A stretch of DNA of 64,000 nucleotides from Acidobacteriaceae bacterium (lineage in GTDB: Bacteria; Acidobacteriota; Terriglobia; Terriglobales; Acidobacteriaceae). Of the stretch, positions 44,883 through 49,845 are shown piece after piece. Positions within the stretch are counted from its first letter, which is position 1. Every line of letters begins with the position of its first letter. The stretch is from the NCBI GenBank assembly GCA_030041045.1, contig JASHOQ010000115.1, positions 5,702 through 69,701 on the forward strand, given 5' to 3'. The notes below the pieces were generated by a model. The model worked only from the letters and a program-made list of their open reading frames with translations. It did not search any database and was not told where the DNA came from. The position numbers and the translations under genes are program-made.

Positions 44883-45608
44883 ATGCTCAAGCTCTCCCTT
44901 CTTCTCGGCGCGGTGGCGGCGCTGGCCGATGTGGCCGGCGGGTTAATCCTGGTGCGCGCGCGCGGCGTGGAGCGCTACCTGCGCTACTTTGTCGCCCTGG
45001 GCGCGGGATTCCTGATGGCCACGGCGCTGCTGGAGATGACGCCGGAGAGCCTGCGCATCAGCCCTCAGCTCGCGCCGGTGCTCATCATGGCCGGCTACTG
45101 CGCGGTTCATCTGCTGGAGCACACCATCAACGCGCATTTTCATTTCGGCGAGGAAACGCACGCGGGCGAGTTCGTCTCCCTGCACACCGGCTACTCCGTG
45201 CTCGGCGGCCTGAGCGTGCACGCGCTCTTTGACGGCGTGGCCATCGGCTCCGGATTTGTGGTTTCCGAATGGCTGGGCTGGCTGATCTTTCTCGCCATTT
45301 TGCTGCACAAGATGCCGGAGGGATTCACCATGGCTTCGGTGATGCTGGCGAGCGGGCGCAGCCGCACCACGGCGTTCTACTCGGCGGTGGTGCTGGCCGC
45401 GGCCACGCTGGCCGGCGTGCTTTTGATCGAACTGGTGCCGAGCTGGCTTTCGATCGGCCTGCCGGTCTCGGCCGGCGTGGCCATTTACGTGGCCGCTACC
45501 GATCTGGTGCCCGAGGTGAACCGCGAGCCCGGCATCCGCATGGCGCTGGTGTTTTTCCTGGGCGTGGCTGCGTTCCTGGTTCTGCGGCATGTGTTGCCGG
45601 CGTTGTAA
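44883..45608 (+). CDS. ZIP-family divalent metal transporter (ZupT-like)
   Basis: Eight TM pattern. HLLEHTINAHFHFGEE His-rich loop. HALFDGVAIG and HKMPEGF motifs. Confidence 0.9.
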   Translation: MLKLSLLLGAVAALADVAGGLILVRARGVERYLRYFVALGAGFLMATALLEMTPESLRISPQLAPVLIMAGYCAVHLLEHTINAHFHFGEETHAGEFVSLHTGYSVLGGLSVHALFDGVAIGSGFVVSEWLGWLIFLAILLHKMPEGFTMASVMLASGRSRTTAFYSAVVLAAATLAGVLLIELVPSWLSIGLPVSAGVAIYVAATDLVPEVNREPGIRMALVFFLGVAAFLVLRHVLPAL

Positions 45609-45620
45609 ACGAGCGGGTCG

Positions 45621-45638
45621 GCAAGTTAGCAAGTCAGC
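45621..45638. repeat. octamer repeat (GCAAGTYA)2, inverse orientation of 23307-23338
   Basis: GCAAGTTA GCAAGTCA GC, immediately left of the transposon target duplication. Confidence 0.5.
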
Positions 45639-45647
45639 TCGGTTCAT

Positions 45648-45667
45648 GGTAGTGTCTCAGTTTGAAA
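45648..45667. repeat. left terminal inverted repeat of the transposon
   Basis: GGTAGTGTCTCAGTTTGAAA. Begins GGnnnTG like IS1 ends. Confidence 0.85.
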
Positions 45668-45771
45668 ATGACTCGAAATGGGGATGGCGAAGATATGGCG
45701 CAAAACTTTACTGTTGCCTTTAGAGTTTTTGTCGATAACAATGATGGGACCATCAAAGAATGGCGAAAATG

Positions 45772-46338
45772 CTACCCCAAAGCGTTTAGGACTTTTACCC
45801 CAGCAGGCGGAGAAAACTCGCCAATTTCCTCTGCCATCCCATAAGCAACGGCGTCCGAGCCGGTGAGGTAAACGTCATGGAAACGAAACTGAGTCCACAA
45901 ATCCTCGGGCAACCGAAGGTGAGCGCGCAGGATTTCCTCCATCCTGGCATCATCAATAGCGAGGTTGGCAGCGACGGCTTTCAGTTTGTCAACGCTCGCC
46001 CCATTGGGGGAATTAATGGCCTTGTGGATCATGAAAACAGCATTAGCAGTGGTCTTTCGGGAGTGGGCGCCAAGATAGGCAAGCGTGGCAGCAGAGGCAA
46101 CTTGGCCAGCGTTGTAGAGGACGACTTCTATGGCGAGCTTCTTTAGAGCGTTATAAAGAAAAACGCCGTCGCCGACAAAGCCGCCCCATGACTGAAACAA
46201 GATGTGAACGCGCTTAGTCCCAGCCGCAGATACTGTGGTTAATCCATTTATCAACTTGGCTCCGTTCGCGGCGTTTATATCGCCGCAATATGTCGCCCAG
46301 AGTTCCTCTGCGACGGGCTTCTTGGTTTCTTCTGGCAT
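45772..46338 (-). CDS. stand-alone ClpP-like (S14/Clp-fold) serine peptidase
   Basis: Start moved to ATG 46338. Candidate Ser-His-Asp triad contexts GQVASAATLAYLG, FMIHKA and LTGSDAVAYGMAEEI, in ClpP order. Lies 29 nt downstream of the transposase on the same strand. Confidence 0.7.
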   Translation of the reverse strand: MPEETKKPVAEELWATYCGDINAANGAKLINGLTTVSAAGTKRVHILFQSWGGFVGDGVFLYNALKKLAIEVVLYNAGQVASAATLAYLGAHSRKTTANAVFMIHKAINSPNGASVDKLKAVAANLAIDDARMEEILRAHLRLPEDLWTQFRFHDVYLTGSDAVAYGMAEEIGEFSPPAGVKVLNALG

Positions 46339-46367
46339 AGCGGAAATACTACACCTTTCCTCGGATT

Positions 46368-47201
46368 CTATTGAGCCAAGAATGCTATCTCTTCGTAGCT
46401 CCAAACGTGATCCGAGATGCCCGCAGCCATCGCGGGCGTAATTCTCAAGGTCTTGTGAATCCGAGCGAAGTTGTAGTGGATGAAATGCAGCGTAACCGCA
46501 GCCGCGTGATTTTCCACTTTCTTAGAGAACGCATTGGTTAAGCGTGTGAACCGGCGCATGCTCATCCGCATAGTCAAATTCTGGCGTTCCACAAAAGACG
46601 TACTCGCGTGCTTAGGGTCGGGATCGCCTGCCACGGTTTTCATATCCCAGCCGATGCACTTGGCTGGGCTGTAACGCCGCGTTTCCTCGTCTGTCGGAGC
46701 GCCGTAGATTTTCTGGAGCGTAGCAAAGTCCACATCGGCTCCGAACGCGTTTTCGACCGCTTCCAAATAGGCTTTGTGTCCATCAGTTGTCAGTTGCACC
46801 CGACCCTTCACGCGGCTGGCAACGTCCTGCATAAATTCGTTGGCCCACCATCCATCGCGGCCGCCCACAAGGTAGCTCACACAGAGCTTCGTATCGGCGT
46901 CAATCGCGGTCCAAGTCCAAGTGTCTCCCCATCCTTCCGCCTTGCGGTCGGGGCTGGCGTTCTTAGCCTTTGCCCCAACAAAGCACCAAATTTCGTCACA
47001 CTGGACCCGCTTGCAGCGCACGTCACGCACCGTCGCATCGTGGTATGCGTGTGCGGCGCTCGCCACGTCCAAGAGAAGCTTTGTGACGGTATTGATTGAA
47101 ACGTCCACGATCCGGCTGATGCTCCGAAGGCTAGTACCTTCGACGAGCATTTGGACGATTTGCGCCCGCTTAGCAAGTGGAAGTCTGTTCGTGACAAGCA
47201 T
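46368..47201 (-). CDS. IS1-family transposase (single ORF, ISMhu11-like)
   Basis: N-terminal HTH RAQIVQMLVEGTSLRSISRIVDVSINTV. DDE region QCDEIWCFVG...WTWTAIDADTKL...TTDGHKAY...ERQNLTMRMSMRRFTRLTNAFSKKVENH...HYNFARIH. Confidence 0.85.
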   Translation of the reverse strand: MLVTNRLPLAKRAQIVQMLVEGTSLRSISRIVDVSINTVTKLLLDVASAAHAYHDATVRDVRCKRVQCDEIWCFVGAKAKNASPDRKAEGWGDTWTWTAIDADTKLCVSYLVGGRDGWWANEFMQDVASRVKGRVQLTTDGHKAYLEAVENAFGADVDFATLQKIYGAPTDEETRRYSPAKCIGWDMKTVAGDPDPKHASTSFVERQNLTMRMSMRRFTRLTNAFSKKVENHAAAVTLHFIHYNFARIHKTLRITPAMAAGISDHVWSYEEIAFLAQ

Positions 47202-47315
47202 AATATTCAGTTTGATTCTAAGTGTCAAGCATAAAGTTCACTTTGAGGACTTAGACTCGCTATTACTGAGATATTCTCATCTTTAACTGATACCTTTGGT
47301 GCTTATACTGAGACA

Positions 47316-48596
47316 ATGGGTGAGGGGATGGATATGCCACTCGATTACGAGGACCTGGTCACACGAGCAACCACTGTCTTTCAGCCACGGACGCCGATCA
47401 CAACGCGTGATCTGTTTGCTGGCCGCTGGAATGAGTTGATGGCGGTTGTCGATGCGGTTAATCAGATTGGTCTGCACGCCGTAATCTATGGTGAACGCGG
47501 CGTCGGGAAAACCTCCCTGGCTAATGTTGTGGCTCCGACGGTTTACGCGATGGATGATCCAAGCCCGACTGCGCCCCTCAATCCCAAAGGGCGAGTAATT
47601 GTCAAAACGGTGGCGACTACTTCGGACACTTTTGCTTCGGTGTGGGTCAAACTCTTTAAAGACATTACGCTGATTGATGATCGACCTGTAGCTGGTTTCT
47701 TCCCTGGCCAAAAGGGACGAGTGTCGCTGCTAGAAGCTTACGGTCTAGATTCAAATCTCTCAGTCGATGACATTCGGCGGGTGATTAGCAATATTCCGAA
47801 TTCGGTGTTCATAGTGGATGAGTTCGATCGACTGCAGCCTGCATCAATGAAAGAGTTTACCGACCTGATTAAGACCCTATCCGATTTTTCGGTGAATTCC
47901 ACGGTCGTTTTGGTAGGAGTTTCCGATACCATCGCCAATCTTGTTGCTGACCATGCTTCAATTGTGCGCGCAATTTCACAGGTATTTCTTAGGAGAATGC
48001 TACCGATTGAGTTGAGGAAAATTCTTACGAACGCCGAAGAGAAACTTGGCATCCATTTCACCGATGACGCCGCTCGTCTCATTGTTCATGTTTCGCAGGG
48101 TTTGCCGCACTATACGCACCTGATTGGCCTTCATGCTGTTCGGGTGGCAGCAGACGCGTACACCGCTCCGACCATTTCACGCAAAGATGTATTTGTGGCC
48201 TTGGATCGGGCTACTACTCAGGCTGAGCAAAGCACTAGGAACAGGCATTCAAGGGCTATTCACAGTTCACACAAAGATGCGCTATATCGGCAAATTCTTT
48301 TAGCGTGTGCAGTGGCCGCTGCTCAAGAACAAGACCCACTAGGGTATTTCACCCCGAGCGCAGTGATTGAACCACTTAGTGCGATTCTGGGCCGTCTAGT
48401 AGAGATTGCAACATTTAATTCCCATTTGAGCGCATTCTCTCAACTAGAACGTGGAAATGTGCTAGAACGAGACGGCCAGCCGCGGGCATATCGATTTAGA
48501 TTTCAAGACCCGATGGTGGTTCCATTTACCTTCATGGACGCGGTCGCAAACGGGATTGTCGATGAAGATCACCTTGCGAGACTTTTGAACGACTAG
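47316..48596 (+). CDS. ORC/Cdc6-like AAA+ ATPase with C-terminal winged-helix-like region
   Basis: Walker A IYGERGVGKTSLANVV, Walker B VFIVDEFDRL and sensor-like VLVGVSD. About 150-aa C-terminal helical domain. Confidence 0.8.
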   Translation: MGEGMDMPLDYEDLVTRATTVFQPRTPITTRDLFAGRWNELMAVVDAVNQIGLHAVIYGERGVGKTSLANVVAPTVYAMDDPSPTAPLNPKGRVIVKTVATTSDTFASVWVKLFKDITLIDDRPVAGFFPGQKGRVSLLEAYGLDSNLSVDDIRRVISNIPNSVFIVDEFDRLQPASMKEFTDLIKTLSDFSVNSTVVLVGVSDTIANLVADHASIVRAISQVFLRRMLPIELRKILTNAEEKLGIHFTDDAARLIVHVSQGLPHYTHLIGLHAVRVAADAYTAPTISRKDVFVALDRATTQAEQSTRNRHSRAIHSSHKDALYRQILLACAVAAAQEQDPLGYFTPSAVIEPLSAILGRLVEIATFNSHLSAFSQLERGNVLERDGQPRAYRFRFQDPMVVPFTFMDAVANGIVDEDHLARLLND

Positions 48597-48831
48597 GGCC
48601 ATTGCTCTTGGCTTTTCCATACCAGCGGGCTTCCGCGGCTTTCACCGCAATGGACTTCCGTTGCTCCTCGGACAACTTGGCCGCTCGCACAGCAGCTCCC
48701 TTGACTCCCCCCGCCCTGCCTCGAACATGGGGATTCCGTTTGGCGGCACTGACCGGGTCATCCAGGCCCTCTGTCGCAATTTCAACGACCATCTTTGCGA
48801 GTTGGTTCGGATCACGCGGGCGCTTCGGCAT
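48532..48831 (-). CDS. small basic protein (99 aa), function unknown
   Basis: MPKRPRDPNQLAKMVVEIATEG...GRAGGVKGAAVRAAKLSEEQRKSIAVKAAEARW resembles a widespread small basic protein type (recollection). Its 3' end overlaps the ATPase gene by 65 nt (convergent). Confidence 0.5.
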   Translation of the reverse strand: MPKRPRDPNQLAKMVVEIATEGLDDPVSAAKRNPHVRGRAGGVKGAAVRAAKLSEEQRKSIAVKAAEARWYGKAKSNGPSRSKVSQGDLHRQSRLRPRP

Positions 48832-48876
48832 GTCTCAAGTTTGCCTGACTGGGTTAAGCACCGCAACCCCCTACGC

Positions 48877-48896
48877 TTTCAAACTGAGACACTACC
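48877..48896. repeat. right terminal inverted repeat of the transposon
   Basis: TTTCAAACTGAGACACTACC followed by the duplicated CGGTTCAT. Confidence 0.85.
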
Positions 48897-48926
48897 CGGT
48901 TCATGGCAGATTGGCGGGCGTGCTGT

Positions 48927-48962
48927 CCCACCCATTCCGCAAACAACGCGGAAAGGATGAGG
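48927..48962. repeat. REP-like imperfect palindrome (copy 2)
   Basis: CCCACCCATTCCGC-AAACAAC-GCGGAAAGGATGAGG. Related to the reverse complement of 23263-23299. Confidence 0.4.
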
Positions 48963-49029
48963 CAACCAGGTTTACATCGCAACAAACACCCCGATATGTG
49001 CCGGGCGGAAAATCGCGTTCGCCTTGCGA

Positions 49030-49845
49030 TCAATTCCCCAGGTTCGCGCTCACTGCGCGCGAGCGGCCCAGTCCGACCTTCCACGCATAGAGGCGCGCCA
49101 GCAGCTTGCCGTAATCCCACGCCACTTTGAAGTTGGCCTTGCTGGCGCCGCGATAACGGCTGCCGAAGACGAACGGCACCTCCTGCATAGTGCCGAGCCG
49201 CGCACGCACCAGGATTTCCAGCAGCAGCTTGAAGCCGGCGCGCTGGAATTCGATCTGATTCACGGCCGCGCGCCGCACCAGGAAGAAACCGGACATGGGA
49301 TCCCGGGCACGCAGCTTGCGCCGCTGCAGCGGCAAGGTAGCCCAGACAGCCGCGGCCGAAAGCAGCTTGCGCAAGGGATGCCATCCGCCCAGCCCGCCGC
49401 CCGGCGTATAGCGGCTGCCGATGGCCAGGTCGCGCCCTTCGGCGATGGCCGCATAGAGTTCCCGCAAAAGCTCCGGCGGATGCTGCAGGTCGGCATCCAT
49501 CACACCCAGCACCGGGGCGTCAGTCGCGCGCCAGCCATCGAGTACGGCGCCGGAAAGCCCGCGCTCGCCCGTGCGCACGATCAGGCGCACGCGCTCGTCC
49601 TCCGCGGCAATCCTCGAAACCACCTCGCTCGTGCCGTCGGGGCTGTCGTCGTCCACCACGATGATCTCGTAGTCGATCTCGAGGGGATCCAGGGCCGCGC
49701 GCACCATGCCGAGGACGCGGGCAATGTTTTCCGCTTCACACAGTGTGGGAATGACCAGAGCCAGCTTCAGGCGCGCGCACTCAGACACGCCACCGGAGCT
49801 CCGGAGGCTCGCAGCGTGCACCGGTTCTCGAATCGGCAGCGACAT
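49030..49845 (-). CDS. GT2 polyprenol-phosphate mannosyl/glycosyl transferase (Dpm1/Ppm1-like)
   Basis: Start moved to ATG 49845. LALVIPTLCEAENI...IIVVDDDSPDGT...VMDADLQHPPE... Confidence 0.85.
   Translation of the reverse strand: MSLPIREPVHAASLRSSGGVSECARLKLALVIPTLCEAENIARVLGMVRAALDPLEIDYEIIVVDDDSPDGTSEVVSRIAAEDERVRLIVRTGERGLSGAVLDGWRATDAPVLGVMDADLQHPPELLRELYAAIAEGRDLAIGSRYTPGGGLGGWHPLRKLLSAAAVWATLPLQRRKLRARDPMSGFFLVRRAAVNQIEFQRAGFKLLLEILVRARLGTMQEVPFVFGSRYRGASKANFKVAWDYGKLLARLYAWKVGLGRSRAVSANLGN

Follow-up and report, generated by a model that had tools for sequence, protein, structure and literature searches.

Within the 64,000-nt stretch analyzed here (contig JASHOQ010000115.1 of an Acidobacteriaceae bacterium, assembly GCA_030041045.1, positions 5,702 to 69,701; hereafter "the window"), a transposase gene, an ATPase gene, a gene for a ClpP-like protease, and a small open reading frame (ORF) stand together where two convergent genes face each other with their 3' ends, one for a ZIP-family metal transporter and the other for a family-2 glycosyltransferase. 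The question this locus raises is whether these genes form a single insertion sequence (IS), and if so of which family, and what the genes other than the transposase gene may be doing there. The evidence makes it very probable that they form an intact IS1-family element carrying passenger genes (a "transporter IS"), inserted between the transporter and glycosyltransferase genes.

The element occupies positions 45648-48896 of the window and ends in a perfect inverted repeat: the 20-bp sequence GGTAGTGTCTCAGTTTGAAA at 45648-45667 on the + strand, and its exact reverse complement at 48877-48896 on the - strand. By IS convention the second of these, upstream of the transposase, is the left inverted repeat (IRL), and the first, distal to the transposase start, is the right one (IRR). 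The repeat is exactly 20 bp long, position 21 being mismatched (A versus G). The octamer CGGTTCAT directly abuts both ends, at 45640-45647 and 48897-48904, as the two copies of a target site duplication, with the 3249 bp of the element between them. These ends and their abutting duplication are, to the base, those proposed in the first-pass annotation of this DNA, which also held that the arrangement exceeds chance and that the interior is AT-richer than the flanks. All of this is borne out. By chance, perfect 20-nt inverted pairs should number about 0.002 in the whole of 64 kb, and even at a tolerance of three mismatches the 20-mer matches the window just twice, versus 0.01 expected from shuffled sequence. 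The octamer alone is not rare (four copies in the window versus 2.06 expected), so that its weight lies in its position at the element ends. The element has a GC content of 52.0%; the adjoining 10-kb flanks have 63.1% and 65.1%. The 20-bp pair was recovered by direct pattern search; the default repeat listing of the window does not include it.

Inside these ends, the transposase gene (46368-47201, - strand) is a single ORF of 277 aa. It is followed 29 bp downstream, on the same strand, by the gene for a ClpP-fold serine protease of 188 aa (45772-46338, - strand; Pfam CLP_protease, E 4.4e-16). The gene for an Orc1/Cdc6-like AAA+ ATPase of 426 aa (420 aa in the source record; 47316-48596, + strand) is divergent from the transposase gene, with a 114-bp intergenic region between them, and a conserved small basic protein of 99 aa (48532-48831, - strand) is encoded starting 45 bp inside the IRL. 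The ATPase and ClpP-like genes both lie inside the repeats of one IS, and the whole unit lies within one duplication, which is the arrangement of a transporter IS.

The same ends bracket homologous transposase genes elsewhere. A scan of one genome per species returned at least 580 related stretches; the 80 loci retrieved are mostly from Acidobacteriota, with 14 from Alphaproteobacteria. At 71 distinct loci of the 80, the core sequence GGTAGTGnnTCAGTTTG is found upstream (+) and downstream (-) of the transposase gene, and the family consensus of the ends is GGTAGTGncTCAGTTTGAA. An 8-bp duplication abuts the ends perfectly at 57 of these 71 loci and with one mismatch at six more, the chance of each perfect octamer match being 1 in 65,536; the 8-bp duplication pointed out earlier for this single element is therefore a family rule. 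The duplicated octamers of the 57 elements show only weak preferences, for A at position 2 and T at position 7. Element lengths range from 1013 to 5395 bp (median 3162 bp); among the 63 duplication-flanked elements, 61 are longer than 1.5 kb, and bare elements of 1.0-1.1 kb with duplications also occur (L080, L086). Complete plasmids of Acidiphilium multivorum, Hoeflea sp. IMCC20628, and Mesorhizobium loti have the same architecture, with the duplications AAGCCGAG, GATGATTG, and CGCTGGTG, respectively. Two cargo-bearing copies on one contig (CAWHOT010000001.1) of a metagenome-assembled genome, L072 (5980-11374) and L074 (5980-8762), are 99.9% identical from the first base of one repeat to the last base of the other, and their duplications differ, which means that a cargo-bearing member of this family moves as a unit.

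Some of the relatives are of interest in their own right. The L072 copy has an extra 2.6-kb insertion within a proteasome-like cargo gene, with ORFs of 251 and 556 aa. On the A. multivorum plasmid NZ_CP041717 (L098, 5881-5897), the element shares its right end with the final 18 nt of a RES-domain toxin gene belonging to a RES-Xre pair, and the insertion may have altered the C-terminus of the toxin. A decayed or hybrid relative in another organism (L004-L013; for example, L005, 5831-8693) has a frameshifted transposase, split into ORFs of 102 and 154 aa. Its transposase plus ClpP-like module has 77% DNA identity to that in the window, and its IRR is identical at 20 of 20 positions; it has a YhaV-type toxin pair inside, its other end is of a different subtype (GGCAGTGGTGCAGTTTGG), and it has no duplication. 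It looks like the product of recombination between two elements. A similarity between its outer flank at L005 and that in the window (GCTCGATTTAA versus GCTCGGTTCAT) was judged to be due to chance, the octamer preferences of the 57 elements being only weak.

Membership in the IS1 family is indicated by both the transposase and the ends, as the first-pass annotation had suggested. The transposase matches Pfam PF03400 (DDE_Tnp_IS1) at 33 bits, above the gathering score of 24.1; it has an N-terminal helix-turn-helix (HTH) according to Pfam; and its best NCBIfam transposase model is transpos_IS1 (69.6 bits, versus 30.5 for IS6 and 25.1 for IS1595). By BLASTP against InsB of Escherichia coli K-12, the segment with the ERxNLxxR...FSK motif aligns with E 3e-6 and that with DE(I/Q)W with E 2e-4, and the TDGH of the transposase is the counterpart of TDGW in InsB. 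Residues D69, D140, and E205 are invariant across 39 transposase homologues, three of them from isolate plasmids. More than 8000 database proteins are homologous to the transposase; the named ones are called "IS1 family transposase," a name given by NCBI (PGAP) and JGI, and the organisms named are Acidobacteriota. Both ends of the element begin GGTAGTG, versus GGTGATG in E. coli IS1A, and both sequences fit the pattern GGnnnTG.

In its workings the element resembles E. coli IS1. The two share a DDE transposase in which the motifs DE(Q/I)W, TDG, and ERxNLxxR...FSK are present, ends of the form just described, terminal repeats of ~20 bp, a short fixed duplication (8-9 bp for IS1), and a small gene just inside the IRL. 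IS1, however, is 768 bp long and cargo-free, and it relies on a -1 frameshift between insA, which encodes a zinc finger and HTH, and insB to produce its transposase, whereas a single ORF encodes the transposase here. InsA has no similarity to the small IRL-proximal protein, and pairwise similarity of InsB to the transposase is limited to the catalytic motifs. The canonical two-ORF IS1 group is excluded by the single ORF without a zinc finger; the single-ORF subgroups are not. Passenger genes are already known from insertion sequences, among them an IS1 subgroup, ISMhu11, which in ISfinder has single-ORF transposases, duplications of 0-10 bp, and, owing to its passengers, lengths of about 900-4600 bp; the present family, at 1013-5395 bp and with 8-bp duplications, resembles this subgroup in general description and may be related to it.

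A number of observations weigh against reading the locus as an intact IS1-family element with passengers. At the family level, the 69.6 bits of the transposase are under the NCBIfam IS1 equivalog cut-off of 100 (NF033558); the transposase has no zinc finger (no CxxC pair within its N-terminal 60 residues) and no insA/insB frameshift, a single ORF spanning both the HTH and the DDE domain; and its D-to-E spacing is 65 residues, versus about 25 in IS1. At the cargo level, comparison with the PADLOC-DB v2 defense models gave no significant match for the passengers of the window, and no hit at all for the ClpP-like protein. At the level of the site, six of six same-species contigs carry the element at this position; a pattern scan of JGI metagenomes for the exact empty site (TCAGCTCGGTTCATGGCAGATTGG) had 0 hits; the 560 bp of intergenic DNA at the corresponding position in two metagenomic relatives (L014 and L016) are not homologous to those of the window; and there is only one copy of the element within the window. 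The sub-cut-off score, the lack of zinc finger and frameshift, and the longer D-to-E spacing place the transposase in a divergent branch of the IS1 family.

The observations on the site bear on both the history and the activity of the element. Searches with the exact ZIP and glycosyltransferase proteins led only to occupied contigs of the same species or to relatives whose ZIP gene is 88% identical. The same-species contigs, drawn from three Logan runs and two NCBI assemblies, match the window at 99.5-100% identity. In L014 and L016, with ZIP genes 88% and glycosyltransferase genes 81% identical to those of the window, the two genes are adjacent, and no repeat, transposase, or cargo was found between them; since these relatives lack the element at this gene pair, it is an acquisition of the lineage represented in the window. 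The first-pass annotation had gone further, proposing that removal of the element and one octamer would recreate a plausible empty site. The reconstructed junction would read ...GCAAGTCAGCTCGGTTCATGGCAGATTGG..., and it is unconfirmed, because the intergenic DNA of the relatives cannot be aligned and the same-species contigs are all occupied: the element-free gene pair stands, and the exact junction was not recovered.

It is accordingly possible, if rather unlikely, that the insertion is an old, fixed, and immobile relic whose passengers have become ordinary host genes, an explanation that concerns activity only and not the identity of the element. Occupation of the same site in every same-species contig, across several samples, is as such a relic would have it, as are the single copy in the window, from which current activity is not demonstrated, and the absence of any empty site from the searches made. 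Against such a relic stand repeats that match at 20 of 20 positions, a perfect duplication, a full-length transposase with all of its invariant residues, and a GC content still 11-13 points under that of the host.

A second explanation, that the element belongs to IS1595 or another IS1-related family and not to IS1, is improbable. IS1595 elements do resemble it: an 8-bp duplication fits both families, some IS1595 members carry passengers, and their DDE transposase is distantly related to that of IS1. A weak match to the NCBIfam IS1595 model and the unmet IS1 equivalog cut-off are also in its favor. The IS1595 match (E 1.3e-5), however, lies well under its own NCBIfam cut-off of 75 bits and under the score of the IS1 model, while Pfam DDE_Tnp_IS1 passes its gathering score, the region of the E motif aligns with InsB, the ends are of the GGnnnTG type, and the named homologues are assigned to IS1.

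At the protein level, the passengers can be described in part by their folds. The ATPase has Pfam matches to nSTAND1, AAA_22, and AAA_16, and its AlphaFold model (predicted local distance difference test, pLDDT, 89; predicted template modeling score, pTM, 0.84) has as its top full-length Foldseek matches archaeal and eukaryotic Orc1/Cdc6 proteins, with E about 2e-9; some sources name its homologues "Cdc6-like AAA superfamily ATPase." The ClpP-like protein matches ClpP structures with E 3e-8, and in alignment its Ser, His, and Asp fall on the catalytic triad of ClpP. An obligate pairing of the two was considered and rejected, each being found without the other. ATPase homologues are present in the same slot of L036, L062, and L101, with a ParA-like gene as partner in L036, none (and no protease) in L062, and a trypsin-like protease in L101, a 4670-bp element with the duplication CGGTGGTC. 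A gene of the same family as the ClpP-like gene follows the transposase gene in L018 and L004; partners of this family are an HEC-04-type ATPase in L018 and a Schlafen/AlbA_2 protein in L035. A metagenome scan for the ATPase yielded three loci only, too few for its partners to be tabulated.

These distributions also bear on whether the two genes are passengers at all. The ATPase could conceivably be a target-selecting partner of the transposase, like TniB, TnsC, or IstB, with the protease as a regulator: the ATPase has a faint Pfam TniB match (E 0.0048), some of its homologues have precomputed TniB matches, and its gene is adjacent to and divergent from that of the transposase. The ATPase is, however, present in only four examined elements (that of the window, L036, L062, and L101), as is the ClpP-like gene in four; unrelated genes hold the same slots in other elements; the bare 1.0-1.1 kb elements have duplications without either gene; and in Granulicella sp. 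L60 the ATPase is found with no transposase nearby. Given this rarity in the family, and an Orc1/Cdc6-like fold over its full length, the ATPase was rejected as a TniB- or IstB-like transposition helper, and the explanation as a whole is very improbable. Finally, a possibility that the first-pass annotation had itself raised, that the 20-mer is a generic dispersed repeat flanked by octamers matching by chance, can draw on the mild excess of CGGTTCAT in the window and is otherwise dismissed, the 20-mer occurring just twice in 64 kb and its core bracketing a homologous transposase at 71 other loci, 57 of them with perfect duplications.

The small basic protein is a different matter. The first-pass annotation had counted three passenger genes; the ATPase and ClpP-like genes stand as such, but the 99-aa ORF is a component of the family and not cargo, because homologues are found in 61 of 63 related elements, absent only from the two bare ones. 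The gene is directly inside the IRL, in sense orientation, in 48 elements, and just upstream of the transposase gene, in antisense orientation, in 13. Its conserved part is the first ~75 aa, including the motifs KRPRDPNQLAK, near the N-terminus, and GGxKGGxARAxxLTPEQRxxIAxKAAEARW. Homologues are about 72-80 aa long; the 24 extra codons of the ORF in the window are not conserved and run 65 nt into the 3' end of the ATPase gene. No Pfam match was obtained for any of 36 members, and the protein has neither a PDB sequence match nor an NCBIfam model. Its AlphaFold model is helical and of low confidence (pTM 0.36), and one source record labels a homologue "histone H1." A profile search returned 12,296 representative clusters at E <=0.001, and 1,946 at E <=1e-10. 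One further locus, L109 (1184-3040), has an 81%-identical ATPase gene with an adjacent homologue of the small ORF; no recognizable terminal repeat was found past the small ORF there, where an HTH gene of the HigA-like type is located instead. L109 could be either a degraded element or a case of the ATPase and small ORF moving together.

Taken as an IS1-family element with passengers, the locus suggests the following mechanism. Insertion into the space between the ZIP and glycosyltransferase genes would have occurred by DDE transposition, in which the transposase, with its N-terminal HTH and its D69, D140, and E205 triad, is predicted to bind both 20-bp ends and to join them to target DNA cut with an 8-bp stagger; once repaired, these cuts would yield the CGGTTCAT duplication. 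The family backbone consists of the two ends, the transposase gene, and the gene just inside the IRL for the ~75-aa small basic protein, which, occupying the place of insA in IS1, may act as a DNA-binding regulator or cofactor. Two slots are available for cargo: one upstream of the transposase gene, held here by the ATPase gene in antisense orientation, and one downstream, held by the gene for the ClpP-fold protease, which is probably co-transcribed with the transposase gene. If the passengers form a defense or addiction module, they may favor retention of the element.

The case for such a module comes from the relatives. In the same two slots, these carry RmrA and RmrT of RosmerTA (E 2e-120 and 3e-24); an HTH-M78 peptidase like PD-Lambda-2_B (E 5e-46; 17 elements); HEC-04 ATPases (E 1e-44); HigB and MazF toxins; and dCTP-deaminase-like proteins. 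Four unrelated protease folds are also represented: ClpP-like (four elements), SDH-type ClpP-like (three, plus the Acidiphilium plasmid), proteasome-like (six elements), and trypsin-like (L101). As a separate observation, the slot that follows the transposase gene is a frequent place for the cargo proteases. The ATPase of the window has as its best PADLOC match PDC-S59, with E 0.0018, and its L101 homologue scores 2.1e-5. With no significant PADLOC match for the passengers themselves, a defense or addiction role is argued from association; because the slots of the relatives are filled with known anti-phage and toxin-antitoxin genes, it is nonetheless the likeliest role for the ATPase and protease, and is held here with modest confidence.

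The DNA around and between these genes has several further features. The ZIP gene (44883-45608, + strand; Pfam Zip; source name "zinc transporter ZupT") has its stop codon 39 bp before the element, and that of the glycosyltransferase gene (49030-49845, - strand; Pfam Glycos_transf_2) is 133 bp beyond it. Tandem octamers, GCAAGTTA and GCAAGTCA, are found at 45621-45636, 4 bp ahead of the target octamer, and a short hairpin, TTCCGC...GCGGAA, at 48935-48953, on the far side of the element, both of them features mentioned in the first-pass annotation; nothing related to either was found in the intergenic DNA of relatives, and an Rfam search of 45000-49500 gave no match. The divergent intergenic space between the transposase and ATPase genes is a possible regulatory region (47191-47246), with two 25-nt direct repeats, GTGACAAGCATAATATTCAGTTTGA and GTGTCAAGCATAAAGTTCACTTTGA, and a promoter-like site. 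The sequence TCAGTTTGA is common to the direct repeats and the terminal repeat, the second direct-repeat copy reading TCACTTTGA. The promoter-like site, TTGACA-17-TATTAT on the - strand (47228-47200), agrees with the consensus at 11 of 12 positions and overlaps the transposase ATG, so that a transcript from it would begin past the annotated start codon. Further along, at 46348-46368 and 46457-46477, the end of the transposase ORF and the short spacer leading up to the start of the ClpP-like gene form a 21-nt inverted repeat (86% complementary; 88 nt between the arms), which might couple or mask translation of the ClpP-like gene.

Variable cargo dominated by defense systems and toxin-antitoxin genes is also a property of Tn7-like transposons (Benler et al., 2021; PMC8649781). 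Those are large elements with multi-protein TnsABC(D/E) machinery and site-specific targeting, whereas the element described here is minimal, with one DDE transposase, and its family one to four cargo genes and target octamers with weak base preferences. Literature searches found no description of this IS1-type family and no mention of ISMhu11; the base-exact family signature, the conserved small protein, and the defense- and protease-rich cargo were likewise not found in the literature searched. A more far-reaching reading, put forward tentatively and with considerable doubt, is that these elements are a large, so far undescribed clade of IS1-type shuttles for defense and toxin-antitoxin cassettes in Acidobacteriota and Alphaproteobacteria, and that in the window the ATPase and protease make up a new anti-phage or abortive-infection module. 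If so, the backbone of the clade would include a second conserved gene, for a small basic protein with a possible role in regulating or assisting transposition, and the recurrence of four protease folds would indicate a common protease-based effector logic.

By itself the element is an ordinary, clean, and well-delimited IS1-family insertion, and it is the family that is the more useful. The conserved 17-nt core and the 8-bp duplication give base-exact ends, so that cargo can be catalogued unambiguously for hundreds of elements; and because that cargo includes known defense systems and toxin-antitoxin genes, its uncharacterized passengers are good candidates for new defense genes. To our knowledge, there has been little experimental work on defense systems in Acidobacteriota. 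Among the candidates in soil members of this phylum are the Cdc6-like ATPase, proteases of three types (ClpP-like, SDH-type, and proteasome-like), and families c3 and c8; the near-universal small basic protein is a candidate IS-encoded cofactor.

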